A stretch of 64,000 nucleotides of DNA from Escherichia phage vB_EcoM_PHB13. Under the pieces are notes generated by a model, which saw only the letters and a list, made by a program, of their open reading frames with translations, made no database searches and was not told the origin of the DNA. This document shows, piece after piece, positions 1,281-47,200 of this stretch. Position numbers and translations under genes: made by a program. Position 1 is the stretch's first letter, and each line of letters starts with the position of its first letter. Location of the stretch: the sequence record MK573636. The stretch is one strand, 5' to 3'.

Positions 1281-2024
1281 TTGGAGAGAGAAAAAGTGAA
1301 CATCAAAAAGTTTATTGTTGATGTTCTGGAGGCGAAAAGCGGAAATAGACTAAACTCAAATCTTTTTAAAGAAAATAAAATTCCAGAAATGGAAAAATTG
1401 TATCCTGCGGAATTTCAGATTATAAGGAATGAGTTTAAGTTCTGTAATGGAGGTCTCAGAAATCAACAACCATATAACGAGGCTGTTTATAGATTGCGCC
1501 ACGGAATAACAGGAATAGTTAAATGTGCAAGATGCCCAAATCCCGTAAATTATCATACATACTCTAGAGGCTATCATAAATTTTGCTGTTCTCGTTGCGC
1601 ATCGTTGGACCAGGCACAAAACATAAAGATTGAACGAGAATGCGCTAAATGTGGTAAACCATTTGTTGCAATAAACGCATCTCAAAAGTATTGTTCTGAT
1701 GCGTGTCGATTGTTTGAGAAGCGAGAGCGAGAACTAGATAGGCCATATCATCATGCAGAAAATGGTATAAAAATATCAAAAAGAGAAGCGTTGGAAATTT
1801 TAGGTAGAGTTGACAATTGCGAGATATGCGGTGTAAAATTCATAAATGAACGATGCGGCGAGAGAAAACGCCAAAAGTGGAAACATCTTGACCATAATCA
1901 TAAGACTGGTAAGATAAGAGGTGTTCTTTGTGGAAAATGTAATGCCGGATTAGGAATGTTCAAAGACGATCCTCAAATATTATATGCGGCATTGGAATAC
2001 CTGAAACGAACTGACGGAGAATGA
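1281..2024 (+). CDS. HNH / endonuclease VII-type homing endonuclease-like protein (mob-like)
   Basis: C-terminus CEICG...HLDHNHKTGKIRGVLCGKCNAGLG is the His-Me finger endonuclease VII motif, plus additional Cys clusters; start may be GTG 1296. Confidence 0.65.
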   Translation: MEREKVNIKKFIVDVLEAKSGNRLNSNLFKENKIPEMEKLYPAEFQIIRNEFKFCNGGLRNQQPYNEAVYRLRHGITGIVKCARCPNPVNYHTYSRGYHKFCCSRCASLDQAQNIKIERECAKCGKPFVAINASQKYCSDACRLFEKRERELDRPYHHAENGIKISKREALEILGRVDNCEICGVKFINERCGERKRQKWKHLDHNHKTGKIRGVLCGKCNAGLGMFKDDPQILYAALEYLKRTDGE

Positions 2025-2030
2025 TATAAT

Positions 2031-3854
2031 ATGTCTGAATTTTTGCTGTTAGATGATCGCGCTCACTGTCTTAAGAGACCTTCAATGTACATCGGGTCAA
2101 CTACTTATGAATCACATAATCGTTTCCTATTTGGAAAATGGACCAAAGTTTCATACGTTCCCGGTCTAGTTAAAATTATTGATGAAATTATCGACAACTC
2201 TGTAGACGAGGCGATCCGCACTAATTTTGAGTACGCTAATGTTATTAGTGTGGATATAAAAGATAACATTGTGTCAGTAACAGATAATGGTCGCGGTATT
2301 CCGCAACATATTGTTACGACGCCAGAAGGGAAACAGATTCCACAACCAGTTGCTGCATGGACACGAGCTAAAGCAGGGTCTAACTTTGATGATACAAATC
2401 GTGTTACTATGGGTATGAATGGGATCGGAAGCGCGCTCACATCATTTTTCTCGTCCTGGTTTACTGGTGTGACGTGTGACGGAGAGAATGAACTGACCGT
2501 TCAATGTACCAATGGTGCAGAAAATATTAGCTGGTCATCCAAGCCGTCAAAACTGAAAGGAACTAAGGTTACGTTCTGCCCCGATTTCGATCATTTTGAA
2601 GGTATGATCATGTCACAAGAAATTTCAGATGTGATTTGCGACCGAATGTATTCATTGAGTGTAATCTTTCCTAAGATCACGTTTAAATTTAACGGCAAAA
2701 AGATAACCAGCAAGTTCAAGGATTATGCTAAACTATACAATGATGATCCGTTTGTCATCGAGGATAAAAACTTCTCACTTGCCCTAGTTCCTGCGGTCGA
2801 GGGAGAAGGTTTTAAATCAGTATCCTTTGCTAATGGTCTGTTTACCAAAAACGGGGGAACACACGTAGACTACGTGACAGATGATCTTTGTGAAGAGATT
2901 GTAAAACGAATCAAGAAAGAATATAAGGTTGATGTTACTAAAGCTGCGGTTAAGTCTGGATTGACCTGTATTCTTATTGTTCGTGAATTGCCAAACCTCC
3001 GTTTTGATTCACAGACAAAAGAACGATTGACTAATCCAACTGGTGATATCAAGCGTCATATTGATCTTGATTTTAAAAAGCTGGCTAAAGTCATTGCGAA
3101 GAAAGAAAACATTATCATGCCTATTATTGCTGTAGTCCTGGCACGCAAAGAGGCAGCAGATAAAGCGGCAGCGACTAAGGCAGCAAAGGCAGCAAAACGG
3201 GCTAAGGTAGCAAAACACGTTAAAGCTAACCTTATTGGAACTGACGCAGAAACTACCCTGTTTTTGACGGAAGGTGATTCCGCGATCAACTATCTGATCT
3301 CTGTACGTGATCAAGATTTACATGGCGGTTTCCCATTGCGAGGTAAAACTCTTACAACATGGGAACAACCGGAGGCAAAGATCGTTAAGAACGCCGAAAT
3401 TTTTAACATCATGGCTATCACTGGTTTGCAATTTGGTGTTGATGCATTGGAAGTTATGCAATACAAAAATATTGCGATTATGACTGACGCGGATACCGAC
3501 GGGATCGGGTCTATTAAACCTAGTCTGATCTCCTTCTTTGCACGTTGGCCTGAATTGTTCGAAGATGGACGAATCCGGTTTATCAAAACGCCTATTATCA
3601 TTGCTGAACCAAAGAAAGGTGATGATGTTCGATGGTATTATGACCTAGAAGATTTCGAGAACGACCGAGATAATATCAAAGGTTACAACATTCGATATAT
3701 CAAAGGTTTAGCATCGCTCACAGAATCAGACTATCATCGCGTGATCAACGATCCTGTCATGGAGATCATCACGTTACCGGAAAACTATAAAGAGCTATTC
3801 GATTTGCTCTATAGTGAAGATGCAGATCAGCGCAAAATTTGGATGCAATCATAA
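2031..3854 (+). CDS. 39: DNA topoisomerase II large subunit, fused gp39+gp60 equivalent (607 aa)
   Basis: N-terminal GyrB-like ATPase region matches T4 gp39; C-terminal IAIMTDADTDGIGSI...RIWMQS matches T4 gp60; one uninterrupted ORF. Confidence 0.9.
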   Translation: MSEFLLLDDRAHCLKRPSMYIGSTTYESHNRFLFGKWTKVSYVPGLVKIIDEIIDNSVDEAIRTNFEYANVISVDIKDNIVSVTDNGRGIPQHIVTTPEGKQIPQPVAAWTRAKAGSNFDDTNRVTMGMNGIGSALTSFFSSWFTGVTCDGENELTVQCTNGAENISWSSKPSKLKGTKVTFCPDFDHFEGMIMSQEISDVICDRMYSLSVIFPKITFKFNGKKITSKFKDYAKLYNDDPFVIEDKNFSLALVPAVEGEGFKSVSFANGLFTKNGGTHVDYVTDDLCEEIVKRIKKEYKVDVTKAAVKSGLTCILIVRELPNLRFDSQTKERLTNPTGDIKRHIDLDFKKLAKVIAKKENIIMPIIAVVLARKEAADKAAATKAAKAAKRAKVAKHVKANLIGTDAETTLFLTEGDSAINYLISVRDQDLHGGFPLRGKTLTTWEQPEAKIVKNAEIFNIMAITGLQFGVDALEVMQYKNIAIMTDADTDGIGSIKPSLISFFARWPELFEDGRIRFIKTPIIIAEPKKGDDVRWYYDLEDFENDRDNIKGYNIRYIKGLASLTESDYHRVINDPVMEIITLPENYKELFDLLYSEDADQRKIWMQS

Positions 3855-11659: not shown

Positions 11660-11878
11660 ATGAACTGGTATAAAATTTGGAAAAATCAGGTGGAGGCTTA
11701 TCTAGGGTATAAGCCCACCGACGAAGAATTACTCGATGCAATGTACGAAGACGGACTAAATCCGAAAGTAGCCGCGCGAGAATACGCGGAATGGATGAAG
11801 GTCGAAGATAACCTAGAGGCAACGAAAAATTTTCACGAAAATAATAAAAAAGCAGTTGACGCCAAAGGTCATCGATAG
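11660..11878 (+). CDS. hypothetical protein (72 aa)
   Basis: ORF from ATG 11660 (MNWYKIWK); ORF track starts at TTG 11645. Confidence 0.45.
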   Translation: MNWYKIWKNQVEAYLGYKPTDEELLDAMYEDGLNPKVAAREYAEWMKVEDNLEATKNFHENNKKAVDAKGHR

Positions 11879-11884
11879 TATTAT
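11856..11884 (+). promoter_or_regulatory. sigma70-type early promoter
   Basis: TTGACG 11856-11861, 17-nt spacer, TATTAT 11879-11884, then leader CCCATACCGAAACGAA. Confidence 0.5.
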
Positions 11885-11918
11885 ACTCCCATACCGAAAC
11901 GAACTGGAGGAAATAAAA

Positions 11919-12161
11919 ATGGTTAAAGTTAATGTTATCGAAGTTGCACTGTACGACGCTGGAATCTTCCTGAATGAAAAAGAAGCTGCCGTGCTCGATG
12001 AACTGAAAACTGTTTTTGTTCCTGTAGTAGAAGACGTTGAAGCAATTAAAATCGCTTCTCGTAAACTGTCTCGCGAAGCATTCGACATGATTGATCCGGT
12101 TTTCAAAGTTATGCACGAATGCGCGGTTATGATGACCGAAGAAGAAGCGAAAAATTTCTAA
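11919..12161 (+). CDS. hypothetical protein (80 aa)
   Basis: ATG 11919 (MVKVNVIEV) after GGAGGAA RBS. Confidence 0.55.
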   Translation: MVKVNVIEVALYDAGIFLNEKEAAVLDELKTVFVPVVEDVEAIKIASRKLSREAFDMIDPVFKVMHECAVMMTEEEAKNF

Positions 12162-12168
12162 AAACCAG

Positions 12169-12203
12169 TTGACGTAAAGAAACGGGAGTAGTAAGATACT
12201 CCC
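12169..12203 (+). promoter_or_regulatory. early promoter with stem-loop (PeSL-like, GGGAGTA family)
   Basis: TTGACG 12169-12174, 17-nt spacer, TAAGAT 12192-12197 in the loop of GGGAGTA...TACTCCC (12184-12203). Confidence 0.6.
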
Positions 12204-12226
12204 ATACCAAACGAAAGGAGAATCAC

Positions 12227-12439
12227 ATGAAATCTATCGAGCAAGTAGTAACAGAGTTTATGAGCTACGAAGGAAACCGCATCTTTGGACGTTCTCAAGT
12301 TCGCGAGATCGTGGAAGAGGTCTCTGGAGAGTTTGCGGAATCTGGTCACGTTATCACGCAAGAACGTAAAGAAGAAGCAGTAAACCAGATCATGGCTATG
12401 CAGAAAATGCGTATTAATGCACGAGCGGGTAAAAATTAA
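12227..12439 (+). CDS. hypothetical protein (70 aa)
   Basis: ORF after AAGGAGAATCAC-ATG. Confidence 0.55.
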   Translation: MKSIEQVVTEFMSYEGNRIFGRSQVREIVEEVSGEFAESGHVITQERKEEAVNQIMAMQKMRINARAGKN

Positions 12440-12446
12440 AAAGTAG

Positions 12447-12481
12447 TTGACACCGGATTAAGGGAGTAGTAAGATACTCCC
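12447..12481 (+). promoter_or_regulatory. early promoter with stem-loop (PeSL-like, GGGAGTA family)
   Basis: TTGACA 12447-12452, 17-nt spacer, TAAGAT 12470-12475; stem GGGAGTAGTAAGATACTCCC identical to the 12184 copy. Confidence 0.6.
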
Positions 12482-12508
12482 ATCAAGAAAAACATTGAGG
12501 AATATATT

Positions 12509-13309
12509 ATGAAAAACATTATCGCTGCGATCGTTCTTTCTACTACGGCTTTCGGTGCTAATGCTGCGTCCTTTGATTGCGCTAAAGCTACTACCAAACC
12601 AGAGAAGTTTATTTGTGCTAATGAGTCAATCTCCGCACTGGATTCTAAACTTAATGAAGTATATGTTAAGGCTGTTAAGATTGATCCATCTCTTAAACAA
12701 GAGCAACGCAACTGGAATAAAACTGTTCGTGATACAATGATCAACATCGGGCAAATACAGCCACTGGAGGCTGTATATAACGCTCAAATCCAAAACTTGA
12801 TGAACGTATTACCTAAAGAAGAAACAGCGTCAGAAAGCGATTCAGAGACTTCTGCGAAGGTTGAAGAAGAACAACCGAAACAAGAAGAAAAAGTGGTAGA
12901 GCAACCGAAGAAAGAAGAGAAAATCTATGGATCTATCACTTACCAGTGCATTGCAAAATTTACATGGAAAATCATTGATGGTATTGAGACAGACAGCCGC
13001 AAAGATCCATTGTATGGAAACTCTACTTATGGCAACAAGGGCGGAAAGCTGAAAATGACCATGACCGAAGGTGAATTGTCTTCTTTCGTATATGTTGATG
13101 AGCGCGAAGTGTTTAAATCAAATCTGACACGCAGCAAACAATATAAAAATATGGTTGTTGGTATGAGCAAACCGGATGTAGCAGGATACTTCAACGAGTA
13201 CAAAATGTGGGTAGGGGAAAACGATGAAATCCGCTTTGAAGTCATCGAGAAAGGTCGCATTAGCTATGATTATGGTACTCAATATGTTTGCGAATATAAG
13301 AAGGGTTAA
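12509..13309 (+). CDS. secreted protein with DUF1311 (LprI-like) N-terminal domain
   Basis: Signal peptide MKNIIAAIVLSTTAFGANA; then C..A...E.FIC...S...LD..LN..Y......QRNW...VRD pattern typical of DUF1311. Confidence 0.5.
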   Translation: MKNIIAAIVLSTTAFGANAASFDCAKATTKPEKFICANESISALDSKLNEVYVKAVKIDPSLKQEQRNWNKTVRDTMINIGQIQPLEAVYNAQIQNLMNVLPKEETASESDSETSAKVEEEQPKQEEKVVEQPKKEEKIYGSITYQCIAKFTWKIIDGIETDSRKDPLYGNSTYGNKGGKLKMTMTEGELSSFVYVDEREVFKSNLTRSKQYKNMVVGMSKPDVAGYFNEYKMWVGENDEIRFEVIEKGRISYDYGTQYVCEYKKG

Positions 13310-16558: not shown

Positions 16559-19477
16559 TTAATTCTTTTTAAGTTCCGCTAGTTCAGCTTTAACGGCTTT
16601 CAATTCTTCGCTCATTTCCTGAAACGCCTTAATTAAAAGAGCGTTGACAGCAGAGTTAGAAATTGTTAAGATCTCTTCTGGTTTATCTGGATCGCCGATC
16701 TTAGAAGTTGTTACTGCTTCCGGCAATTCTTTTTCAAGATCCTGAGCAATAATACCAACTTCATGAGCGATAACAGTGCGGTCCGTCAAAGACTTAACCT
16801 TATCGTAGGTGTACACAGTCAAGCGATTAACTTTATCGGTGGCATTCTCCTTATACTCTTCCTTGTTGATTTTCAGACGAGCATCAGAACGAATATACAC
16901 ATCGTTAAACGAACCGTTACGTCCTGCCGACATGTCACCGGTGGCGCTAAAGTCAAAGTTGGCGTCATTAACGTTTAGGCGTGCTATAGCATTACCTATA
17001 GTGCCGCCAGGAACGTGTACACCCATTGCCGCAATATGATATTTTCCCCAATGAGTCGCTTTCCAGATGTTATGAGCGGAATCGGTTGATTGAGGACAGT
17101 CTACGAGGATTCCGGCAGAACGATCACGCCAGCTAGCCCAGCTACCACCAGCAACACTACCACGAATCAAACCTTTATCAGATCCGCCGACGCTACCAGA
17201 TTCCAACTGGATCATTTTATCTGCAAATTTCCACACCTGGGCTTGTTTCTGACCACGGAAGCGAATAACACCAGCATCATCGCAGTACATCAAGCCTAAC
17301 TCTAAACCGTTCGGATCTCTAAACCAGATGTGCTTATTGCCAGTACGACGAAAATCAATATCAGAACCGCCCAAAATAATATTACCGCCAGTGGTAATTG
17401 CTTGCGGCCTAAGAGTACCGTTGATGGCAAACTCGATTAATTCAGTACCCGGACCGCCAGGTCGGTGGGTATACCAATGCCACCCGCTTTCATCACCGCA
17501 TTCAAATATTTGTTTACGACTATCGTTACCCCATACACGTAGAGTAAACGTAGATGCGGCGGTCCCTTTACCCCATTTAATTTGACCAGCAGATTCCAAA
17601 TCACCGAAGAATTTAGTTTTAATCGCACCAGTTGATAAAGTACGTTCAGTGGTGAAGTGTGCACCCATGCTATCGTCAAGCTGTAAGATGTTATCACGCG
17701 CGTTATTGCTATCGCCCCAATGGTTAAACCGGAAGTAGTCGCGGGAATTTAATCGCCCAGCGTCGAAAGTCAAATGCCCTTTCTTAATGTAAACGTCATT
17801 ACTAAAGCGAGCGGCACGAGAAGCACGTTCTAACGTTAATGCTTCTTCGTTACCATCACCGCCTAATTGAACGTTACCGGAAGTTAAATCATAAATGAAT
17901 GGACGATAGCTATTCCATCCACCAAAACGATCATTTTCGGCAGTAGAAAGAAGATAAACTTTAGTGCCGTCATTACGCCAGAATGCACCGTAATTACCAA
18001 AGATCATACGGTATGCATTAGAGTTAGCGGAATAATATTGTCCGTTGGTATATACAATTTTTGTTTTTCCTACCGACAGCGTAACCTGACCAGTATCATC
18101 CAGTCTTAATGAGTTAGTACCTTCCGTTAATTCATTTACTAACTGTACGGTGTTAGTAGTAGCGTCACCATACCCTAGATAACCTTGACGGCGGTTAGCA
18201 CCGGAACGATAATCATAAAATTCTAGGTAATTACTTTGTCCGTCTCTACGCTCCATTCTGATAGCGTTATTTCCCTTAACGAAAAGACGATTTACAGTAA
18301 CCCCATTAAAATCAATTTTTAGTTGGTCTGACTGATCAGTAACGCCAGTAGCTAAACGATATACGCCACCCTCGACAACCTCATGCCATATTGTTTCTGC
18401 GGATTTGCTACGAAACTTACGAAGATATTTTTTATTGCTATCAGTCGAGTTATTCAAGCTGATAATATCATACGTTCCTTGACCGTTATTATCAAACATC
18501 AACGTTCCGGCTTTGTTTTCGGTGTTGAACATGGTAATAACACGAGCATCAAATTTAGTTCCGGTTTCTGGTTTAGTCGCCGAAAATTCAGGAACATCGT
18601 GAACAGTCAATGCAACATCAACAGTTTTTCCAAACTCTACAATAACGTTATCAGTGAAGCGACCATAGTTAACATAAATGTCATAGTTATCACCGGAAGT
18701 ATTAATTGCAAATACTTCATGGACGTTCAAAGAATTTCGACGATATGCAGCAATACTAACGCCTTTAGGGTTATTATTACCACTACGAATCACAATTTCA
18801 AGGAAATCCACCTGATCGTAGGAGTTAACATTAAATCCGTTCCCACCATAGATTCGCAGAAACGCCATCCGACCACTCTGCGGGATCATTGCGGATGCAA
18901 TTTTAAAATAACCACGGGTTGCTCCACCAGAAGGAGTAGACATTTTAACGTTCTTAACAAACATACGGTCAATTTCTTGTTTGCTATAGACGTTCAATTC
19001 TGAGGGAGTAGGTTTATCACCTTCGTGATACATGCGAAAGCTGAATCTCTTGTTACCATCCTTATCAAAGCCATAGGTTTTAACCTGAGAGGAACTAGAA
19101 CCATATTGAAATTCGAACCCGCGACCGTGTGCTTTACCGCTGGGATGAGGAATGTTCAGAATCAAGTTAGACCAATCATCAGCATTATTCGGTCGAAACG
19201 CACCAAAATAATTAAGATCTCGCGCGGTTTGGTCTTCAAAATAATTAGCGGTTTTACTTAAAATATAATTATTTCCTTTAACCTTACCCGCCATTGTAAC
19301 ATCGCTGTCATAAACCGGAGGACAACTTAAATTGATAATAGCACCGGAATCATTTTTAGTAAGAAGATATTGATCCGCAAGGTTGATTGCCAATTCCCCC
19401 GGATTCATCGTACTAGCATCCGGTCGACGACCTTTAGTGCTAGTGCGTTTAAATTGGATTCTGCTTAAATCTGCCAT
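16559..19477 (-). CDS. 37: long tail fibre distal subunit gp37 with C-terminal intramolecular chaperone domain
   Basis: N-terminus MADLSRIQFKRTSTKGRRPDAS...GELAINL matches T4 gp37; C-terminus ...SDARLKINKEEY...AVKAELAELKK resembles S74-type self-cleaving chaperone domains. Confidence 0.85.
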   Translation of the reverse strand: MADLSRIQFKRTSTKGRRPDASTMNPGELAINLADQYLLTKNDSGAIINLSCPPVYDSDVTMAGKVKGNNYILSKTANYFEDQTARDLNYFGAFRPNNADDWSNLILNIPHPSGKAHGRGFEFQYGSSSSQVKTYGFDKDGNKRFSFRMYHEGDKPTPSELNVYSKQEIDRMFVKNVKMSTPSGGATRGYFKIASAMIPQSGRMAFLRIYGGNGFNVNSYDQVDFLEIVIRSGNNNPKGVSIAAYRRNSLNVHEVFAINTSGDNYDIYVNYGRFTDNVIVEFGKTVDVALTVHDVPEFSATKPETGTKFDARVITMFNTENKAGTLMFDNNGQGTYDIISLNNSTDSNKKYLRKFRSKSAETIWHEVVEGGVYRLATGVTDQSDQLKIDFNGVTVNRLFVKGNNAIRMERRDGQSNYLEFYDYRSGANRRQGYLGYGDATTNTVQLVNELTEGTNSLRLDDTGQVTLSVGKTKIVYTNGQYYSANSNAYRMIFGNYGAFWRNDGTKVYLLSTAENDRFGGWNSYRPFIYDLTSGNVQLGGDGNEEALTLERASRAARFSNDVYIKKGHLTFDAGRLNSRDYFRFNHWGDSNNARDNILQLDDSMGAHFTTERTLSTGAIKTKFFGDLESAGQIKWGKGTAASTFTLRVWGNDSRKQIFECGDESGWHWYTHRPGGPGTELIEFAINGTLRPQAITTGGNIILGGSDIDFRRTGNKHIWFRDPNGLELGLMYCDDAGVIRFRGQKQAQVWKFADKMIQLESGSVGGSDKGLIRGSVAGGSWASWRDRSAGILVDCPQSTDSAHNIWKATHWGKYHIAAMGVHVPGGTIGNAIARLNVNDANFDFSATGDMSAGRNGSFNDVYIRSDARLKINKEEYKENATDKVNRLTVYTYDKVKSLTDRTVIAHEVGIIAQDLEKELPEAVTTSKIGDPDKPEEILTISNSAVNALLIKAFQEMSEELKAVKAELAELKKN

Positions 19478-29060: not shown

Positions 29061-29741
29061 ATGATCAGAAACCGTCTTCCTCCAGATCCAGATATGCGAA
29101 TTAATGCTAAATCTGTGTATATGTTATATTGCATGATGAAAGCTCATATGAACGGGCGTTATGATTGCGTAAAATACAATTGGAGGATGCGGTTGTCTGA
29201 TGCCGCATTCAATAAACGCAGAGATAAGTATTATTTCGCAAAATTAGCGGAAAAGTACAATCTAAGAGAACTATACTTCCTATTCCTAAGCAATCTGGTG
29301 GCTAATACCGATGCATGGGTAGGTGAAATCACTGATGTTGACGCATACGGCTTTTATATGGAATACATAGGAAAGATAACCGATGCAGCAACAAGATTTG
29401 ACGATGACATTAAAAGTCTGGTATACTTCTCCGAGAAACGCGGGGTTACTCTTAAAGAGCTAATTACATACAATCCCGCAACCGAAACAAGCGGTATCTT
29501 TAAACTACTGCAAAATCGGATTATATCGTTTGAGTCGTTTATGTTGTTAGATAGCTTTCTAAATATAATCGACGAACACGACAAGGTAGCCAAAGACTTG
29601 ATTTGGCAAACTTATAGTGTTAAAATGAAGGCGTACAAGAAACTACTTGTTATTGACGCCGCAAAAGCAAGAGCATTATTTGTTAAAGTAGTTAAAGAGT
29701 GTAAAGAAATATCTCAATTAAAAACCGAAACAAATAGTTGA
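29061..29741 (+). CDS. 59: helicase loader gp59
   Basis: ...KSVYMLYCMMKAHMNGRYDCVKYNWRMRLSDAAFNKRRDKYYF... matches T4 gp59 closely. Confidence 0.9.
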   Translation: MIRNRLPPDPDMRINAKSVYMLYCMMKAHMNGRYDCVKYNWRMRLSDAAFNKRRDKYYFAKLAEKYNLRELYFLFLSNLVANTDAWVGEITDVDAYGFYMEYIGKITDAATRFDDDIKSLVYFSEKRGVTLKELITYNPATETSGIFKLLQNRIISFESFMLLDSFLNIIDEHDKVAKDLIWQTYSVKMKAYKKLLVIDAAKARALFVKVVKECKEISQLKTETNS

Positions 29742-29765
29742 CAAGTAAATTTAAATCTGTATAAT
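29738..29765 (+). promoter_or_regulatory. sigma70-type promoter upstream of gene 32
   Basis: TTGACA 29738-29743, 16-nt spacer, TATAAT 29760-29765. Confidence 0.5.
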
Positions 29766-29795
29766 AATCTAGTAAATTAATCAAAAGAAGGAATA

Positions 29796-30770
29796 GTGAA
29801 TATGTTTAAACGCCAAGATTCTTCCAAACTGCAAGCTCAACTGGCCGCACTGAAAGGTGGCAACGGTTTCTCCAAAGAAGATCCGAAAGAGTGGAAGATT
29901 AAGACTGATGCAGCAGGTAACGGTGAAGCCCTGATTCGCTTCCTGCCGTCTAAGACAGAAGACGGTCTGCCGATTGTGAAACTGGTAAACCATTCCTTCA
30001 AAGTTAATGGCAAATGGTATTGGGAAAACTGCTCCAGCACCCACGGTGATTTTGATTCTTGCCCTGTGTGCAAATATATTAACGAAAAAGACCTGTACAA
30101 TACCGATAAAACAGAATGGCAACTGATTAAGCGTAAAGCGTCTTACTACGCAAATATTCTGGTACTGAAAGATCCTCAAGCACCAGAAAATGAAGGTAAG
30201 GTATTCAAATTCCGCTTCGGTCAGAAAATTTATGATAAGATCGTTGCAATGGTGAACGTGAATACCGATATGGGCGAAGTTCCGGTCGATGTAACTTGTG
30301 TGTTCTCTGGTGCTAACTTCCTCCTGAAAGCTAAGAAGGTTGATAAACACCAGAACTATGATGATTCTCGTTTCATGCAGCAATCACAGCTTCCGAAAAT
30401 TGAAGACGAAGCATATCAGAAATATCTGATGGAAAACATGGTTGATCTGAGTGAGATTGTAGCGCCTAGCCAGTTTAAACCGTTCGATGAACTGGAAACC
30501 AAATTTAAGAAAACTATGGGCGTTTCTATGGTAGCTGGTGCTGCGGCTTCCAGTGCTGCGGCAGCGATTAACAGCCAGCTTGACGATTTTGACGCACAGA
30601 TGAATGCATTCGATTCTGGTATGACCGCAGCTAGCACTGTAGTTGGTATTAACGCAGCTAGCACGGCGTTAGATTCTTCCGCTGATGACCTGATGGCATC
30701 GCTGGATCTGGGTGGCGGTACTTCCTCCGCTTCTGATCTGGATGATCTCGACGCTCTGTTAGGGATGTAA
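29796..30770 (+). CDS. 32: single-stranded DNA-binding protein gp32
   Basis: MFKRQDSS...[30 protein letters not shown]...[17 protein letters not shown]...acidic C-terminus matches T4 gp32; ATG 29802 is the likely start. Confidence 0.95.
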
Positions 30771-30780
30771 TGAATTTTAA

Positions 30781-30809
30781 AGCCTTCCTTCGGGGAGGCT
30801 TTTTTATTA
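30781..30809 (+). terminator. rho-independent terminator after gene 32
   Basis: Hairpin GCCTTCC-TTCG-GGGAGGC followed by TTTTTTATT. Confidence 0.65.
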
Positions 30810-30833
30810 CCTAAATTTTTATGAAAAAATATA

Positions 30834-30861
30834 TTGACATGCTGGCGCGGTAATGTATAAT
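30834..30861 (+). promoter_or_regulatory. sigma70-type early promoter
   Basis: TTGACA 30834-30839, 16-nt spacer, TATAAT 30856-30861, then leader CACATCGAAACAA and GGAGGA RBS. Confidence 0.55.
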
Positions 30862-30896
30862 ACACACATCGAAACAACGGAGGATAATATTATATT

Positions 30897-31226
30897 ATGT
30901 GGACTGTAGAACAAATCGTAGATGAAAAAGTAAGTATTATCTCGTGCGGCACTATTGAAGAATGCCTTAAAGCCGCTAATCGTGAATGTATTACGGTTTA
31001 TGAAGCCCGTCGCGGGGATGGTACTGTGTTAACCAGCGACTATCGATATGAACCAAAAATGATTACCTTTCGTTTTTGGGAAAATGGTGTTAATGTTGGG
31101 GTATCTCACTTAAAACGTTTTCGTGATTATTCTGACCGTTATTTCATCACACCGGATAACGGTCAAGAATTTAAGACAGCAATCACAGAAGAAAATGTAA
31201 ACGAAAACTATTTCAAACTGATTTGA
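30897..31226 (+). CDS. hypothetical protein (109 aa)
   Basis: ORF after GGAGGA RBS. Confidence 0.5.
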   Translation: MWTVEQIVDEKVSIISCGTIEECLKAANRECITVYEARRGDGTVLTSDYRYEPKMITFRFWENGVNVGVSHLKRFRDYSDRYFITPDNGQEFKTAITEENVNENYFKLI

Positions 31227-31241
31227 TGGGAGATTTATATT

Positions 31242-31811
31242 ATGATTCAATGTGTATTTGCGATTGGTGACACTAAAATGTCAGATGAAAATTGGGCTTT
31301 TGGTTTTAAAGGCGGTTTACCGTGGGGTCGTCCAATCAAAAAGGACATGGAAAACTTTAAAATGCGCACTATGGGAGATGTTGACCTTGCGGCGGTGGTA
31401 ATGGGACGTAATACCTTTGAAAGTCTCCCTAAAGCACTGGAAGGACGTCTTAATGTGGTTATTAGCACCGATGCCAGTAAGCCGACACCAAAAGCTAAAA
31501 ACGGCGACCAGCCTAATGTGTATACTGGAATTGAATTAAAGGATCTGTTAAAAGTCCTGGAGAAAACGCAAGGTTTGGTAAGCGTTATCGGTGGACCTTC
31601 CCTAATTGAAAAAGCAGTTGACTTTGCGGACCGTATTGTGTTAACGTATGTTCAACGTTCAGGGACCAACGATCCATTGGAATATGATGTTGGAATCTCT
31701 AAGGATATGATTCAGGAATTATTTTTTGACTTTGCAACAAAAGAAGAACATAATTACTTCCTTGATGATTACCTGATCAGCGAACAAATTTTAGAACGTA
31801 AGAAGGCGTAA
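31242..31811 (+). CDS. frd: dihydrofolate reductase
   Basis: ...AFGFKGGLPWGRPIKKDMENFKMRT...VVMGRNTFESLP...VIGGPSL... are DHFR motifs; sits upstream of td as in T4. Confidence 0.8.
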   Translation: MIQCVFAIGDTKMSDENWAFGFKGGLPWGRPIKKDMENFKMRTMGDVDLAAVVMGRNTFESLPKALEGRLNVVISTDASKPTPKAKNGDQPNVYTGIELKDLLKVLEKTQGLVSVIGGPSLIEKAVDFADRIVLTYVQRSGTNDPLEYDVGISKDMIQELFFDFATKEEHNYFLDDYLISEQILERKKA

Positions 31812-31812
31812 C

Positions 31813-31905
31813 ATGAAAATTCTGACAGATTATGAGTGCAAACATTGTGGTGAATCTTTGATGTTTGCTGGTAGTCGGTGCTTACATTGCGGACGGGAAC
31901 AATAA
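31813..31905 (+). CDS. possible 30-aa zinc-ribbon micro-ORF
   Basis: MKILTDYECKHCGESLMFAGSRCLHCGREQ: two CxxC pairs; stop overlaps the next start (TAATG). Confidence 0.3.
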   Translation: MKILTDYECKHCGESLMFAGSRCLHCGREQ

Positions 31906-32174
31906 TGAAAGTCGGTATTATTCAATTATGGACGGCTACCAGTGAAAACTACGCAGTAGCCGTAGATTATTACGGTTTACAATATCTCTATGATGAAGCG
32001 AGCGCATCATGGCTTCCTGTGCAAGAAAATAGCGATATCTCAAGACCTGCAACTGTATTCGACCGTGGCGTTGTCTTTATCGATATTGACGAGACAGTAG
32101 CAAAACTGCGTAAGAAAGCAATCAACAAGAAAAAGGTGATGTGGGATGAAAGAATATTTGAAACTGTTGCGTGA
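31905..32174 (+). CDS. hypothetical protein (89 aa)
   Basis: ORF from ATG 31905 (MKVGIIQLW); overlaps the td start. Confidence 0.5.
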   Translation: MKVGIIQLWTATSENYAVAVDYYGLQYLYDEASASWLPVQENSDISRPATVFDRGVVFIDIDETVAKLRKKAINKKKVMWDERIFETVA

Positions 32175-33366
32175 TGTTCTTGATAATGGCTGGCCTCGTG
32201 AAGACCGCACGGGGGTAGGTACGCTCTCTAAATTCGGCGCAGAGATGCGAATTGATTTAAGCAAGGGTTTCCCATTACTGACCACTAAAAAGATGGCTAC
32301 AGCCTCTGTAATTGGCGAATTGCTATGGTTTATGGAAGGGTCACTTGACCGCCGTCGCTTACAGGAAATTACACGCGGTAAGTTTGACGAAGAAGCCTTT
32401 GACATTTGGCGCGGTAATTGTCTTGATATGAAAGAAAAGAATCCTTTGCGATTCAATGGTTATAATGTTGGCAATATGTATGGTATGGCATGGCGACGCA
32501 AACCGATTCATCCACACGGTGAGATCAAAATTAAGCGCGTTAAGAGCAAATATACACATACATTTAAACACCCGTGGGTAGAAGACTTTACGCCAACCAA
32601 TGAAACAGAAGACCGTTTATGTGCTATCTGGCGTGGTATGATTTATGAAGAGTTTGATTGTATTCTGGTAGCAGACCACTGGAAGACTCAATCTAATTTT
32701 GTTAATGATGCATATTGCTTGTGGGGATTCCAGGAATGGGTAGATAGTGGTTATTTCGATTATCTGCTTGATAGTGATTATCTGGGTGGCGACATTTTAG
32801 CACCGGATACCACGATGTTTGTTAGTATGGACGTAGACACATCAAGCACTAAAGACGATGAAGAATATGTCTATCGCCCGAAGATTTGGGAAGACCAGTT
32901 ACAAAACGTGATTGAACAAATTAAAAACAATCCAACGGATCGCCGGATCATTATTGACTCATGGAACGTACAAGGAACACATAATGCTGTATTAGGTGTA
33001 TGTCATCCTTTCGTGCAATTCTATGTCAATGAAGGTAAACTGTCTTGTATGTGGTTTCAGCGAAGCGTAGACAGCTTTTTGGGCTTGCCCTTTAACGTCG
33101 CCAGCTATGCGCTGTTAACTCACATCATAGCGAAAATGTGTGATCTTGAGGTAGGAGAACTGATTTTCTCTGGTGGAGATACTCACATTTACAAAAACCA
33201 CTTTAATCAAGTTATGGAACAGTTAAGCCGTGTTCCGTTTGATAAACCAACAATTGAGTTGCCGGAATTTAAATCTTTAGATGAGATATTGACAAAGACT
33301 CCGAAAGACTTTAAAATTCACAACTATCAAAGCCATCCAGCGATCCCCGCTCAAATGGCAGTATAA
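32146..33366 (+). CDS. td: thymidylate synthase with ~125-aa internal insertion (406 aa)
   Basis: N-terminal MKEYLKLLRDVLDNG...DRTGVGT and C-terminal RRIIIDSWNV...VCHPFVQFYV...FQRSVDSFLGLPFNVASYALLTH...GDTHIYKNH...HPAIPAQMAV match T4/E. coli TS; an extra block follows YGMAWR. Confidence 0.85.
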   Translation: MKEYLKLLRDVLDNGWPREDRTGVGTLSKFGAEMRIDLSKGFPLLTTKKMATASVIGELLWFMEGSLDRRRLQEITRGKFDEEAFDIWRGNCLDMKEKNPLRFNGYNVGNMYGMAWRRKPIHPHGEIKIKRVKSKYTHTFKHPWVEDFTPTNETEDRLCAIWRGMIYEEFDCILVADHWKTQSNFVNDAYCLWGFQEWVDSGYFDYLLDSDYLGGDILAPDTTMFVSMDVDTSSTKDDEEYVYRPKIWEDQLQNVIEQIKNNPTDRRIIIDSWNVQGTHNAVLGVCHPFVQFYVNEGKLSCMWFQRSVDSFLGLPFNVASYALLTHIIAKMCDLEVGELIFSGGDTHIYKNHFNQVMEQLSRVPFDKPTIELPEFKSLDEILTKTPKDFKIHNYQSHPAIPAQMAV

Positions 33367-39257: not shown

Positions 39258-39719
39258 ATGATTAATGAGCTAATAGAAAACTATGGATTCGTTAAATATT
39301 CATGTTTAGAGTGTAAAGATGGTGATGTGATTCTACCGCCTCAGAAGAACCGTTTAAATGTTCTTTATGCTATTGTGGTTGATGATGAACTGGTATACAT
39401 TGGTCAGACTGTCAATCTCAGAAAGCGGATCAATTATTACCGGACTAGCATTAACAGACAAACACCAACAGCGGATACTCGCAAGAGTAAGAATATTCAT
39501 AAGGCGCTAGAGGAAGGGAAGACAGTAACATTCTATTACCGCCAGTGCTTTGAGTTATATATTGAGAATCCAACGGGTAAAGATATTATAAGCACTGCCG
39601 ATATCGAAGAACCTGTTTTGATCACCAAATTTAAACCAGAATGGAACACAAATTATGTCAACAAAAGAAAACAACAAAAAAGTTTTAGCATTGTTCAAAA
39701 ATCTGATGGCACTATGTGA
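39258..39719 (+). CDS. GIY-YIG nuclease domain protein (153 aa)
   Basis: VLYAIVVDDELVYIGQTVNLRKRINYY matches the GIY...YIG...R motif; possibly a seg-like endonuclease. Confidence 0.55.
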   Translation: MINELIENYGFVKYSCLECKDGDVILPPQKNRLNVLYAIVVDDELVYIGQTVNLRKRINYYRTSINRQTPTADTRKSKNIHKALEEGKTVTFYYRQCFELYIENPTGKDIISTADIEEPVLITKFKPEWNTNYVNKRKQQKSFSIVQKSDGTM

Positions 39720-43248: not shown

Positions 43249-43561
43249 ACAAGTTGATAATATCGCACTTCGTGAAGCACTAAAGAAAATGTTTTCGGTC
43301 GGTACTCACTCTTTGCAGTTTACTAAGAAAGATGGTACTGTCCGTGAGATGATCGCCACGCGAGATCCGGCACTGATGCCATTTGAAACATACGAAAAAT
43401 GGTTAGTTCCTAATGTTGAAAAACCGCGTAAAGAATCAGAAACATCTTTGCCAGTATATGAAATTGCAGTTGAAGGTTTCCGTAGTTTTGGGCTTGATAG
43501 TCTGATTAATGTAGACGGGCTGACTCCAGCGCAGATCGTCGAAATTTACGGTGGCAGTTGA
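43235..43561 (+). CDS. hypothetical protein (108 aa)
   Basis: ORF overlapping the cd stop. Confidence 0.5.
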   Translation: MIMTEQVDNIALREALKKMFSVGTHSLQFTKKDGTVREMIATRDPALMPFETYEKWLVPNVEKPRKESETSLPVYEIAVEGFRSFGLDSLINVDGLTPAQIVEIYGGS

Positions 43562-43563
43562 CA

Positions 43564-44175
43564 ATGGAAACAAAAGATGATAATATCGTATTACCAGCGC
43601 CGGAAGAATGGAGACAAGCTGTAGGTTATCCGTGGTATGAAATCTCTAATTATGGTAGATTGAGATCTATTGACCGAAGTATCGAATTTTATAGAGAAGT
43701 TTCTCCCGGTAATATTAAGCTCGTAAAACAAAAACGTGCTGGTAAAATAATAAAACCAATTTTAGACCGATATGGATATTATTATTCAACATTGTCAAAA
43801 CAAAAAGACAATGGTAAAATCTCAGTTAAAGCCGAAAAGATACATCGACTTGTAGCAAATGCATTTCTAGGAGACGTTACCGGACTTGAGGTTAATCACA
43901 TCAATGGTGTAAAAACCTGCAATTATGTGTGGAATCTAGAAATAGTAACCTTACTAGAAAATATGAGACATTCATTTAGAACTGGACTCAATAACAATGT
44001 CGGTGAAAACCACTCACGGGCAAAACTGACAAATGCGCAAGTCGAAGAAATAATGCGGCTTAAAGGAAAAGTTAAGAAGCAAATTATAGCTGATATGTTT
44101 AATGTTTCTTATTGTTGTATAGCGCAAATACATTCCGGTCTGCGGAGAAATCCAAAGGTCGCGAAATATAAATAA
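43564..44175 (+). CDS. HNH homing endonuclease-like protein with C-terminal HTH
   Basis: YPWYEISNYGRLRS (NUMOD4-like), HRLVANAF...VNHINGVKTCNYVWNLE (HNH) and a C-terminal HTH-like region. Confidence 0.7.
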   Translation: METKDDNIVLPAPEEWRQAVGYPWYEISNYGRLRSIDRSIEFYREVSPGNIKLVKQKRAGKIIKPILDRYGYYYSTLSKQKDNGKISVKAEKIHRLVANAFLGDVTGLEVNHINGVKTCNYVWNLEIVTLLENMRHSFRTGLNNNVGENHSRAKLTNAQVEEIMRLKGKVKKQIIADMFNVSYCCIAQIHSGLRRNPKVAKYK

Positions 44176-44211
44176 TTTACTATTGAGATGAATTGAAGAG
44201 GTAAGAAAATT

Positions 44212-44535
44212 ATGACCGTTAAAACTCCTAAAGCACTTGGTGACTATGTGATCATTGAAGCTAAAGCGGAAAGCGCAGGGACCGAAGTAAAGAGCGATTT
44301 TGGTATTATCATCGAGCAAAAACGAACTATGGGAGAGATTCCTTTAGTCGGTAAGATTATTGATATCGGTGATAACGTTGATAAAGAATTGCTGGGCAAG
44401 ACTGTATTGCTTCCTCATGGGAAACTTAATAAAGTTCCTCATCCAGACGTTATTAACGGCGTTAAGAAGGAAGAAGAGATCGACCTGAAATGGACTGTAA
44501 CGCACAAACAGAATATTGTGGTAGTTTACGGTTAA
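44212..44535 (+). CDS. 31: co-chaperonin gp31 (GroES-like)
   Basis: ...LGDYVIIEAKAESAGTE...GIIIEQKRTMGEIP...NKVPHP matches T4 gp31 in size and motifs. Confidence 0.8.
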   Translation: MTVKTPKALGDYVIIEAKAESAGTEVKSDFGIIIEQKRTMGEIPLVGKIIDIGDNVDKELLGKTVLLPHGKLNKVPHPDVINGVKKEEEIDLKWTVTHKQNIVVVYG

Positions 44536-45251: not shown

Positions 45252-46734
45252 TATCATTAATCAGCTTGCAGCAACAGACAAAACATCGCTGAAAGAAAAG
45301 ATCCTGAAAGAATCTGCAAGCAATGAAACGCTGAAAGAATGCTTTTATCTGGCATATTGCAAACAGGTTACGTTTGGCGTAAAGAAATACGATAAACCAT
45401 CGCGTTATTCGTCTGTATTGTCTTTATCCGGTGCATTACAGGTCTTTAAAAATAAACTTGCCACGCGTCAAGTAACTGGTAACGCAGCATTACAGCTAGT
45501 TACCGATACTCTGACTTGCTTGTCAGAAGATGATGCTAAAGTTGCAATGATGGTCCTGAATCGTGATCTGGAATGTGGTTGTTCCGCTACCACTGCAAAC
45601 AAGGTATGGAAGAAACTGATCCCCCAGCAACCGTGTCACCTTGCATCGTCATGTTCTGATAAGACTATTGCTAATATCAAGTATCCGGCGTATGCACAAC
45701 TTAAAAGCGATGGCGCTCGTGGTATGGCTGATATTGACGGGGAAACATTAGCAATCTATACCCGTTCAGGTAATACCTATCAGGGACTTGATGATTTGTT
45801 TGCGGTTTTAGAGCGTCTACGAGGCCGTGGAATTGTTCTAGATGGCGAATTGGTATATATGCCTACCCTTTCGCAAACACCAGCGCAGAACTTCGTTGAG
45901 AGCATTTATGATGGTACTCTGTCATGGATATTTGAAGAAGAGGAAATGCCATTAACGCCAGTAGCGGAAGCAGTAAAAGAATCCGTTGTTGCAGATCGTC
46001 AGACCGGAAATGGTATCCTCAACAAATCACTGAAAGGAACTATTCCAAAAGAAGAAGCCCAATGTATTGTTTACACTGTCTGGGATGTTATCGACCGTGA
46101 TGTGTATTACGGAAACGAGAAAGCAACGAAGCAATATAAAGATCGATTCGAAGAACTAAAACAGATTGTTGAAGAACTTAACGATCCTCGTGTTCAGATA
46201 ATCGAAAACACTGTAGTTAACAATATAGATGAAGCTCGCGAAGTATATCATCGCTATGTAAACATGGGCTTAGAAGGTATTATCCTTAAAAATTTACATG
46301 GTGTATTTGAAGATCGTCGCAGTAAAGATCAGGTTAAATTTAAAGAAGTGATTGACTTCGACGCGGAAATTGTTGATGTATATCCGCATAGTAAAGACCC
46401 TAATAAGGTAGGCGGTTTTACTGTCCGTAGTGCGTGCGGACGAATGATGACTAACACCGGATCGGGATTGACTGACACCACAACCGAAAAAGGTGATGAT
46501 GGTATTGAACGTGTAATTCCGTTCGATCGTCGAAATGAACTCGACCGAGAAATGTTATGGGCTGACCGTCATAACCTGATTGGAAAAGTCATTGAGATGA
46601 CATGCAACGGGTATATCCGCAGCAAATCACGTAAAGAAGATGAACCGGAGTTCTCTTTATTTCTCCCGATCATCAAACGTATTCGCTACGACAAGACCAC
46701 TGCAAATACAGTAAAAGAGGTATTCGATGTGTGA
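45232..46734 (+). CDS. 30: ATP-dependent DNA ligase
   Basis: ...AYAQLKSDGARG (adenylation lysine motif)...VLDGELVY...EGIILKN...KFKEVIDFD... matches T4 gp30 (487 aa). Confidence 0.9.
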   Translation: MKMSILNIINQLAATDKTSLKEKILKESASNETLKECFYLAYCKQVTFGVKKYDKPSRYSSVLSLSGALQVFKNKLATRQVTGNAALQLVTDTLTCLSEDDAKVAMMVLNRDLECGCSATTANKVWKKLIPQQPCHLASSCSDKTIANIKYPAYAQLKSDGARGMADIDGETLAIYTRSGNTYQGLDDLFAVLERLRGRGIVLDGELVYMPTLSQTPAQNFVESIYDGTLSWIFEEEEMPLTPVAEAVKESVVADRQTGNGILNKSLKGTIPKEEAQCIVYTVWDVIDRDVYYGNEKATKQYKDRFEELKQIVEELNDPRVQIIENTVVNNIDEAREVYHRYVNMGLEGIILKNLHGVFEDRRSKDQVKFKEVIDFDAEIVDVYPHSKDPNKVGGFTVRSACGRMMTNTGSGLTDTTTEKGDDGIERVIPFDRRNELDREMLWADRHNLIGKVIEMTCNGYIRSKSRKEDEPEFSLFLPIIKRIRYDKTTANTVKEVFDV

Positions 46735-47200
46735 TAATGAAGGGGCGAAAGCCCCTAAACCTAAAAAATTGTCAAAGAAAGAGCAACGCCAGATCCTGAA
46801 AATGAAATATGGTGGACGTTGTGCCTATTGTGGCGAGGAACTAGGGGATCGCTGGCACGCAGACCACATCAAACCAGTATTGCGACGCTCAAAGGTAGTC
46901 TATGATGAAAATGGACGAATTGCCCGTAATGATGATGGATCGTGGAAGTATAAGGTTGTAGGAATGCATAAACCGGAACATGATATACTTGATAACATGA
47001 ATCCGGCGTGTGTGCAATGCAATCTTTATAAAAGCTGTATGGGCTTAGAATACTGGCGTAAGTTTATACGCGAGAACTTCCAGAAGTACATTCAGCGAAA
47101 TATGGGGTTGCGAGCGGCTAAACGCTTTGGCTTGCTGTCAATTCATGACCAGCCAGTAGAATTTTATTTCGAAAAGTACGAGCGCGAAAATAAGGAGTAA
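46727..47200 (+). CDS. HNH endonuclease-like protein
   Basis: CAYCGEE...WHADHIKP...NMNPACVQCNLYK is an HNH motif; true start may be downstream at MKYGG given the hairpin at 46743. Confidence 0.6.
   Translation: MCDNEGAKAPKPKKLSKKEQRQILKMKYGGRCAYCGEELGDRWHADHIKPVLRRSKVVYDENGRIARNDDGSWKYKVVGMHKPEHDILDNMNPACVQCNLYKSCMGLEYWRKFIRENFQKYIQRNMGLRAAKRFGLLSIHDQPVEFYFEKYERENKE
46743..46756 (+). other. GNRA-tetraloop hairpin just after the ligase stop
   Basis: GGGGC-GAAA-GCCCC with no T-run; lies in the annotated 5' end of the next ORF. Confidence 0.45.

Follow-up and report, generated by a model that had tools for sequence, protein, structure and literature searches.

The stretch of DNA analysed here, 64,000 nucleotides of Escherichia phage vB_EcoM_PHB13 (record MK573636; hereafter the window), belongs to the genome of an RB49-like Krischvirus, a T4-type coliphage with approximately 96–97% identity to MIZ6, KFS-EC and RB49. 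An initial annotation had flagged five homing-endonuclease-like ORFs as mobile insertions marking variable junctions beside conserved genes, and all five were found where it placed them, on the plus strand at 1281–2024, 26210–26774, 39258–39719, 43564–44175 and 46727–47200. Profile searches, whose failure was to have refuted the annotation, confirmed the nuclease motifs proposed for these ORFs, and the neighbouring genes that had been named (topoisomerase gene 39, gene 34/rnh, rnlA, gene 31 and ligase) agree with the annotation of relatives. The HNH/beta-beta-alpha-Me motif was supported by above-cut-off Pfam matches (Endonuclease_7, HNH_3 and HNH) for 1281–2024, 26355–26774, 43558–44175 and 46727–47200, and the HNH motifs of these four HNH-type proteins are visible in alignments to 3FC3, 1U3E and 4H9D; in NCBIfam, none of the five proteins matched a family significantly. 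No further homing endonuclease genes (HEGs) were found among the other sizeable unassigned ORFs checked in the window (51144–51599, 54177–54731 and 12509–13309), and the late-promoter motif TATAAATA was not enriched, with 3 matches vs. 5.3 expected.

The presence or absence of each gene was compared across 58 Krischvirus records, with the junctions read from anchored MAFFT alignments. Three of the five genes proved to be polymorphic insertions with clean empty sites, namely 1281–2024 (HEG1; 12/58 records, net 739-bp indel), 26210–26774 (HEG2; 8/58, net 548 bp) and 43564–44175 (HEG4; 11/58, net 615 bp), while 39258–39719 and 46727–47200 were detected in 58/58 records each, with no empty site. 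The interpretation of the five genes as mobile insertions at variable junctions is, therefore, partly supported.

HEG1 (1296–2024) lies between gene 39.2, followed by a 36-aa ORF, and gene 39, and is a free-standing EndoVII-type HNH (beta-beta-alpha-Me) endonuclease gene. The mechanically called ORF begins from a TTG at 1281, and the GTG at 1296, annotated as the start in MIZ6, is the likely true start. The protein matches Pfam Endonuclease_7 (5e-16, above cut-off) and phrog_2914 (1e-20), and harbors two CxxC...CxxC zinc-ribbon modules in its N-terminus, which weakly resemble YacG, a zinc-finger GyrB inhibitor. Its catalytic block, HLDHNH...CxxCN, aligns with Hpy99I (3FC3, 1.8e-9) and T4 EndoVII, the match to Hpy99I being the better one; the alignment with T4 EndoVII (1E7D) is confined to some 29 residues spanning the HNH core (E=0.0086). 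Identity with T4 endonuclease VII (gp49; a dimeric resolvase of 157 aa) was rejected, as the similarity does not extend over the full length and HEG1 carries an extra 170-aa N-terminal region with the zinc ribbons, so that the term EndoVII-like appears valid at the domain level only. In Gaprivervirus VR7, a homologue with 40–45% identity is found at that same junction (39.1|39), and a PeSL-like motif (promoter and stem-loop) was observed at 1202–1261 of the window, immediately upstream of where HEG1 is inserted.

The first 750 bp of gene 39 (2031–2780, plus strand), which encodes the topoisomerase II large subunit, constitute a divergent allele linked to HEG1, having 60–85% nucleotide identity to HEG-less relatives and 97–100% to carriers, with approximately 99% on both sides of the tract. 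At the protein level, 13 records are at least 99% identical to the window, while the other 45 range from 80 to 90%. All 12 HEG1 carriers have this carrier-type allele; among HEG-less records it occurs only in G37-3, which recombined within codons 1–4 of gene 39. Such a pattern is expected if cleavage takes place within gene 39 and some repair tracts end before reaching the HEG. The tblastn search for a donor of the foreign tract found none closer than the 13 carrier-type Krischviruses, with other Krischviruses reaching 83% and other genera at most 60%, and the donor is a lineage outside the sampled collection. From these patterns, 2031–2780 may be read as a co-conversion tract that contains the putative HEG1 cleavage site of HEG-less alleles.

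HEG2 (26210–26774) is located between gene 34, on the minus strand, and a small ORF upstream of rnh. The gene is split into two ORFs, 26210–26353 and 26355–26774, whose frames differ by +1, and is thus not intact in this genome, in contrast to HEG1 and HEG4. The second ORF alone matches HNH_3 (2e-12) and AP2 (8e-7), and the frame-corrected protein has HNH_3 (3.8e-12) followed by AP2 (1.4e-6), which places it in the HNH-AP2 class as initially annotated; the AP2 match is under the Pfam gathering score (28.9 vs. 33.3 bits) and is supported by PDB AP2/ERF structures at 6e-8. The frameshift was likewise borne out, as deleting a single A in the run of seven (A7, 26342–26348) restores an ORF of 187 aa, and KFS-EC and ELT4 carry A6 with an intact 187-aa ORF. 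A programmed +1 frameshift at AAA-AAA-AGG-TGA was ruled out by these continuous copies together with FL20, which has A6 and a different, independent frameshift; this leaves the A7 run as either a plain inactivating indel or an error of sequencing. A generally error-prone assembly is not evident, since window-specific indels of lengths other than multiples of three comprise only a few intergenic singletons and compensating alignment artefacts in the divergent tracts, although a single error may lie behind the run. Homopolymer sequencing errors could account for the frameshifts. Divergence in the HEG2 flank is short and weak, extending over 26000–26200 with 88–91% identity in some relatives, and counts against the homing reading set out below.

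HEG4 (43564–44175), a free-standing gene with NUMOD4 (2e-11) and HNH_3 (8e-9) Pfam domains, lies between a gene 31.1-like WYL_2 ORF and gene 31, and also aligns with I-HmuI (1.5e-3). The helix-turn-helix (HTH) that had been attributed to its product found no Pfam support in the C-terminus, even at E-values up to 10. Amino-acid identity among the copies in the records is 97.6–100%, tblastn splits two of these copies, and the next-best homologue has 39% identity; degraded copies were observed in FL20 and G37-3. The copies of KFS-EC and ELT4 show zero synonymous differences from that of the window, compared with a backbone pS of 0.07–0.28, which we count in favour of a recent spread of the gene; pN/pS values for the HEGs are based on 4–16 substitutions. 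Downstream, gene 31 (44212–44535, plus strand), encoding the co-chaperonin, is a divergent allele linked to HEG4. A tract of approximately 300 bp (44200–44500) has 81–92% identity to HEG-less relatives and 98–100% to the HEG4 carriers KFS-EC and ELT4, and identity returns to 98–100% beyond it, a pattern suggesting that this tract was co-converted and contains the candidate HEG4 target region.

The gene at 39258–39719, which had been listed as a GIY-YIG homing-endonuclease-like gene, encodes a single-domain GIY-YIG nuclease of 153 aa. Its GIY-YIG match stands at the Pfam threshold (22.5 vs. 22.6 bits), while phrog_1111 (2e-52) and T4 endonuclease II (PDB 2WSH, E=2.6e-38) are matched strongly, the latter end to end, with query residues 3–134 aligned to chain residues 9–141. 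The position of the catalytic Glu118 is conserved in the sequence DIEEP, which has E-E where the crystal construct, an E118A mutant (PMC2764454), has E-A. A Seg-type homing endonuclease was rejected, given the single-domain alignment, the lack of a C-terminal DNA-binding domain and the presence of the gene in every record. Because it adjoins rnlA in all 58 records, the locus is neither a homing endonuclease gene nor a variable junction, and by homology and position we assign it as denA, the endonuclease II orthologue and a resident core gene. It is annotated beside rnlA in the nucleotide-metabolism cluster of RB49, Phi1, Sf20 and KFS-EC, and its pN/pS of 0.06 indicates strong purifying selection. 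The T4 enzyme, with which it shares the full-length alignment, the single domain and the rnlA-adjacent position, nicks unmodified host DNA. In T4, endonuclease II degrades cytosine-containing host DNA (PMC2764454); the RB49 type is absent from the list of phages with gene 42, dCMP hydroxymethylase (PMC2993671 Table 4), so the T4 model does not explain how the DNA of these phages escapes their own endonuclease II.

The zinc-finger HNH nuclease gene at 46727–47200 overlaps the stop codon of ligase (gene 30) with its ATG (ATGTGA). Its product matches Pfam HNH (5e-6, above cut-off) and phrog_2118 (6e-54), retains an intact CxxC...HADH...N...CxxCN motif and is at least 96% identical in amino acids throughout the 58 records, with a pN/pS of 0.14 pointing to purifying selection. 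Homologues outside these records all stay below 45% identity and belong to siphoviruses; in one case the gene lies just before that for the terminase large subunit. The description of this gene as a mobile insertion does not hold for the sampled records; the variable element of the junction is the adjacent 47208–47552 (plus strand), which encodes a predicted membrane protein of 114 aa (RB49 ORF211 type). KFS-EC and Sf20 have this ORF, and ELT4, MIZ6 and RB49 (OZ035808) are without it; the type was reported to be specific to RB49 when compared with phi1 (PMC2839356). A PeSL-like motif adjoins the ORF at 47566–47594.

We consider it very probable that the three HNH-superfamily HEGs, at the 39.2|39 (HEG1), 34|rnh (HEG2) and 31.1|31 (HEG4) junctions, spread by intronless homing, and that denA and the ligase-linked HNH gene are resident. 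In a mixed infection, each nuclease would cut the neighbouring conserved gene in genomes that lack the HEG: HEG1 would act on gene 39 and HEG4 on gene 31, and the target of HEG2 would probably be the 5′ end of gene 34 or the intergenic region. The break would then be repaired from the HEG-carrying genome, and the repair would bring in the HEG along with part of the adjoining donor gene, which resists cleavage; the HEG2 of this genome would be a dead copy through its frameshift. Domains, presence/absence pattern, exact junctions, linked divergent tracts and frameshift were read directly; we infer the homing process itself and its targets, the latter from the position of the divergent tracts only. 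The tracts of gene 39 and gene 31 start at the insertion, lie on one side only and end abruptly, and such one-sided tracts beside HEG1 and HEG4 are the classic co-conversion signature of intronless homing, for which distant cleavage sites and co-conversion have been described (PMC2988022). HEGs are also unequally distributed among close T4 relatives (PMC2993671), and the degraded copies of HEG2 (in the window and FL20) and HEG4 (in FL20 and G37-3) also speak for this reading.

It has been proposed that PeSL motifs let modules shuffle in RB49-type phages without any nuclease (PMC2839356), and the three indels might have arisen in this way or by illegitimate recombination, the nuclease ORFs being cargo and the divergence of genes 39 and 31 ordinary mosaicism. 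The mechanism is documented in RB49 and phi1, and the PeSL-like motifs beside HEG1 and the variable ORF 47208–47552 would fit it, that upstream of HEG1 counting against a homing-only view. We nevertheless regard shuffling as an unlikely explanation for the three insertions, since the cargo at three independent junctions is each time a gene of the site-specific-nuclease type, the divergence starts precisely at the insertion and is one-sided, HEG1 and the gene 39 allele go together in 12/12 carriers, and the HEG2 and HEG4 junctions yielded no PeSL-like motif. The opposite extreme, that all five genes are mobile HEGs, could draw on the nuclease motifs in all five, on the variable junction downstream of the ligase-linked gene, and on one "other HNH" putative HEG reported in RB49 and phi1 (PMC2993671 Table 5), which may be that gene. 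It is contradicted for the sampled population by the fixation of denA and the ligase-linked gene, and with both under purifying selection and denA a full-length T4 EndoII orthologue without a Seg-type DNA-binding domain, we give it hardly any credence.

Apart from homing at the other three junctions, the fixed nuclease at 46727–47200 is either an old homing gene that has gone to fixation or a domesticated one. Its fixation, its translational coupling to gene 30, its intact motif and its low pN/pS would suit a phage enzyme that is not selfish, for example a nicking or processing nuclease acting with ligase or in DNA packaging or repair, and the siphovirus copy upstream of the terminase gene also points in this direction. 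Another relative, however, sits in a replication module away from terminase, T4-type terminases carry their own nuclease, and successful homing, too, would be expected to end in fixation, so that domestication is put forward tentatively, as the less probable course. Far more speculative, and in our view very improbable, is a wider proposal in which HEG1 belongs to a cross-genus family of topoisomerase-gene-associated nucleases with a second role of binding or modulating the GyrB-like gp39 and not only its DNA, and in which, separately, the ligase-coupled HNH would be a domesticated ligase partner.

The known T4 examples of intronless homing include SegF on gene 56, SegG on gene 32, MobE on nrdB and MobA with the gene 60/39 cassette. 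HEG1 likewise involves the topoisomerase large-subunit gene, which is presumably also the MobA target. Like the T4 Mob and Seg genes, the HEGs of the window are free-standing intergenic nuclease genes beside conserved DNA-metabolism or morphogenesis genes, are sporadic among close relatives and have one-sided co-converted tracts in a neighbouring gene, which would place the cleavage site at a distance from the insertion (PMC2988022). The proteins differ, HEG1 being EndoVII/Hpy99I-like with zinc ribbons and HEG4 an I-HmuI-like NUMOD4 and HNH_3 protein, and no T4 mob genes were among the tblastn matches listed. The sites differ as well, with HEG1 upstream of an unsplit 60+39 gene and HEG4 upstream of gene 31, and the homing role of the three genes here is putative. 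HEG2 shares its HNH_3 and AP2 architecture with the HNH-AP2 genes of RB16, RB43 and Klebsiella T4-like phages, having 52–53% identity to "homing endonuclease RB16 2" and Klebsiella phage homologues, but differs in its 34|rnh location and in being frameshifted here. One copy of this class is recorded in RB49 and two in JSE (PMC2993671); among the relatives, an HNH-AP2 gene occupies the HEG1 site in phiS, another follows gene 39 in G37-3, and a third lies between genes 59 and 32 in ELT4, and we count these HEGs at identical or nearby junctions in favour of homing. With I-HmuI of Bacillus phage SPO1 (1U3E), HEG2 (6e-5) and HEG4 align over the HNH_3 core and the N-terminal NUMOD4-like strand region, whereas I-HmuI is intron-encoded and both genes are free-standing, HEG2 has a C-terminal AP2 domain, and the I-HmuI-type C-terminal HTH is undetected in HEG4.

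Free-standing HEGs are already well documented in T4-like phages, and copies of these genes from close relatives are in GenBank as well, several of them annotated as endonuclease. The value of the analysis is mostly one of annotation, with two of the five calls corrected to resident genes (denA and the ligase-linked HNH), exact insertion junctions provided, and two candidate homing targets named, the 5′ third of gene 39 and gene 31. Gene 39 would, in addition, offer a clean natural case in which homing imports approximately 750 bp of an essential-gene allele that is about 25% diverged, and the recombinant G37-3 has retained this apparently imported allele without the endonuclease gene.

Profile searches matched nuclease motifs in all five ORFs that the initial annotation had taken for homing-endonuclease-like mobile insertions, and each ORF was found where it had been placed. 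The ORF of HEG1, the first homing endonuclease gene (HEG; 1281-2024), matched Endonuclease_7 (5e-16), while that of HEG4 (43558-44175) matched NUMOD4 (2e-11) and HNH_3 (8e-9), with no profile hit to the C-terminal HTH once proposed for its protein (43564-44175). The endonuclease II gene denA (39258-39719) scored right at the Pfam threshold for GIY-YIG and matched phrog_1111 (2e-52), and the ligase-linked HNH gene (46727-47200) matched HNH (5e-6) and phrog_2118 (6e-54). HEG2 is indeed frameshifted: its first part, 26210-26353, stops at AAA-AAA-AGG-TGA and the +1 frame goes on as a second ORF (26355-26774; HNH_3, 2e-12; AP2, 8e-7), with removal of one A from an A7 run (26342-26348) giving an unbroken 187-aa HNH_3+AP2 protein.

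Window positions 1-25000 and 25000-49000 were matched at 93-100% coverage and ~96-97% identity by MIZ6, KFS-EC, RB49 and ~55 other records (megablast, GenBank phages), and the fetched relatives are classified as Straboviridae; Krischvirus, so by its sequence the window is that of an RB49-like T4-type coliphage. The neighbouring genes named previously agree with annotated relatives, in which the order is dexA-39.2-gene 39 at HEG1, gene 34/rnh at HEG2, denA-rnlA, cd-31.1-gene 31 at HEG4, and gene 30 (ligase) beside the last HNH gene.

Each gene with ~0.7-1 kb of flank per side was searched against the phage collection, and every search returned one identical set of 58 Krischvirus records (52 once six GenBank/RefSeq duplicates were removed). 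The claim of variable junctions held for three genes. HEG1 had full-length matches in 12/58 records (G2248, MIZ2/3/6, G5211, Skers, FL04, JK32, MIZ4/5, E26 and JEP8), with a span 739 bp shorter in 45 of the 46 non-carriers and a different insert in phiS. HEG2 occurred in 8/58 (FL20, ELT4, PTE-Eco09, two records of KFS-EC, G37-3, pEJ01 and FL15), the other 50 having a span 548 bp shorter, and HEG4 in 11/58 (E26, two records of KFS-EC, G37-3, G2494, ELT4, FL20, pEJ01, two records of ECD7, and phiS), the other 47 having a span ~615 bp shorter. No database record has both HEG1 and HEG2; the set of three HEGs in the window is a new combination, but trivially so. However, denA and the ligase-linked HNH gene were present in 58/58 records each, and the reading as mobile insertions is supported for three genes of the five, the polymorphic ones.

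Most annotated records label the denA ORF as denA, endonuclease II or plain endonuclease. Its residues 3-134 align end-to-end with T4 endonuclease II (EndoII; PDB 2WSH, E=2.6e-38), the glutamate matching catalytic E118 is kept, no further DNA-binding domain was found, and pN/pS is 0.06. On this evidence it is a GIY-YIG enzyme under strong purifying selection and not a homing endonuclease. T4 EndoII nicks cytosine-containing DNA, which starts host DNA breakdown (PMC2764454), and RB49-type phages are not in the list of phages with the dCMP hydroxymethylase gene 42 (PMC2993671 Table 4); self-protection of RB49-type cytosine DNA from EndoII is left unexplained by the T4 model. The ligase-linked HNH gene overlaps the ligase stop codon, has an intact zinc-finger motif (CAYC...HADH...N...CVQCN) and shows 96.2-99.4% amino-acid identity in all 58 records (tblastn), with a pN/pS of 0.14 that rests on few substitutions. 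Outside these records tblastn found no homologue above 45% identity, the other relatives being siphovirus HNH genes only; one of these immediately precedes the gene for the large terminase subunit and a second belongs to a replication module. The ligase-linked gene may have reached fixation by homing or may have been domesticated.

The flanks of HEG1 and HEG4 are divergent on one side, and that of HEG2 over a short stretch. Left of HEG1, carriers and empties are ~99-100% identical as far as position 1277, and the insertion alters the final codons of a 36-aa hydrophobic ORF (1189-1299) that starts MSHILDNHSIFNMIVAAVFVAVAVSYGYVM and whose 3' codons vary with the insertion state (empty, HEG1, or the HNH-AP2 gene of phiS). 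To the right, the first ~750 bp of gene 39 (2031-2780) show just 60-85% identity to HEG1-less relatives, returning to 96-100% beyond. The N-terminal 250 aa of gene 39 reach 99% identity or more in just 13 records, namely the 12 HEG1 carriers and G37-3; the remaining 45 Krischvirus records have 80-90% and other genera ~60% at most, a spread that points to an unsampled Krischvirus-like lineage as the donor of the tract. G37-3 (fetched stretch 3280-3480 against window 1270-2100) lacks HEG1 yet has the gene 39 allele that goes with it: the sequence crosses over from empty-type to carrier-type in codons 1-4 of gene 39, which makes G37-3 a natural HEG1-less recombinant, presumably resistant to cleavage. 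The HEG4 insertion removes the stop codon of an upstream WYL_2-domain ORF, adding Gly-Gly-Ser to its end, and gene 31 (44200-44500) is 81-92% identical to HEG4 empties and 98-100% to carriers, with 98-100% again downstream. At HEG2 the divergence is confined to 26000-26200, which covers the 5' end of gene 34 and intergenic sequence; some relatives are 88-91% identical there. A T4 late-promoter-like TATAAATA at 44167-44174 overlaps the HEG4 stop and precedes the ATG of gene 31 by 38 nt, so gene 31 may have gained an upstream signal that came with the insertion. This motif shows no enrichment across the window, occurring 3 times where 5.3 matches are expected.

Were the nuclease to cleave inside the neighbouring gene, intronless homing, documented for SegF, SegG, SegE, SegB and MobE (review PMC2988022), would leave one-sided tracts that start at, and are linked to, the insertion, of the type seen here. 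Promoter/stem-loop cassettes (PeSLs) offer RB49-type phages a rival route for exchanging small gene modules (PMC2839356), and a PeSL-like motif (TTGACA-16-TATGAT, then a 14-pair stem) lies directly upstream of HEG1 at 1202-1261, overlapping the 36-aa ORF. For the three HEGs homing appears a better fit than such shuffling, given that the inserted genes encode nucleases, that the tracts linked to them lie on one side and that G37-3 is a recombinant. PeSL shuffling may well be the source of another indel: in alignment, the length difference at the ligase junction is the adjoining 114-aa membrane-protein ORF of RB49 ORF211 type (47208-47552), present in KFS-EC and Sf20 and missing from ELT4, MIZ6 and RB49-OZ035808. 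It is followed at 47566-47594 by a promoter that has a stem-loop between its hexamers, TTGACA-GGGGATCACGTATCCCC-TATACT, matching the PeSL cassettes of RB49 and phi1, between which ORF211 is variable (PMC2839356), as the Sf20 record notes also describe. Further replacement or indel polymorphisms against close relatives affect a small-ORF cluster including part of an LprI-domain ORF (12509-13309) and the distal tail-fibre gene (regions 11812-13278 and 16900-18600). The thymidylate synthase ORF (32146-33366, + strand) encodes 406 aa, T4 Td having ~286 aa, and varies in length in frame near 32660 among relatives (1221-1236 bp). At 54177-54731 (+ strand), a 184-aa ORF, hypothetical in KFS-EC, has a GmrSD_N (DUF262-type) domain (Pfam 5e-20); a GmrSD-like N-terminal domain standing alone is unusual in a phage.

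In related phages, other HEGs sit at these or nearby junctions. An HNH_3+AP2 gene fills the HEG1 site in phiS, a HEG2 paralogue lies downstream of gene 39 in G37-3, and another HNH_3+AP2 HEG lies between genes 59 and 32 in ELT4 (29380-29976); the window has no HEG after gene 39 or between genes 59 and 32 (29741-29796). Between gene 32 and frd, ELT4 has an extra 269-aa ORF without Pfam match (31128-31937) and Sf20 also has an ORF, noted in its record for RB49 gp240 likeness and putative endonuclease activity, which the window interval (30770-30897) is without. Gaprivervirus VR7 has a full-length HEG1 homologue (40-45% identity) directly upstream of gene 39, and others occur in the related VR26 and RZ. 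HEG4 copies across different backbones are 97.6-100% identical, and the absence of synonymous differences among three copies compared, against a backbone pS of 0.07-0.28, indicates a recent spread. Broken copies were also seen: the HEG2 A-run is A7 in the window and A6 in KFS-EC and ELT4, FL20 HEG2 (fetched stretch 1091-1325) has an independent frameshift from an extra A 17 nt downstream of the run, and HEG4 is split in FL20 and G37-3 (tblastn). The copies in FL20 and G37-3 would reflect either repeated HEG decay or homopolymer errors in assemblies. Homopolymer sequencing error may likewise account for the window's HEG2 frameshift. A scan of the window found no further window-specific indel that shifts the frame of a large ORF.

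It is well established that even the closest relatives of T4 differ in their HEGs; RB49, phi1 and JSE, for example, have genes of the HNH-AP2 and 'other HNH' classes (PMC2993671 Table 5), and recent Krischvirus isolates have since been reported to differ likewise (PMC11611945). The three HEGs are present in GenBank relatives at 96-100% amino-acid identity, several of whose records label them endonuclease VII, homing endonuclease or HNH homing endonuclease. Neither the kind of finding nor this instance of it is thus new, and the biology is ordinary. The present analysis corrects the reading of two of the five genes, gives the exact junctions, and predicts two cleavage targets, the 5' third of gene 39 and gene 31.
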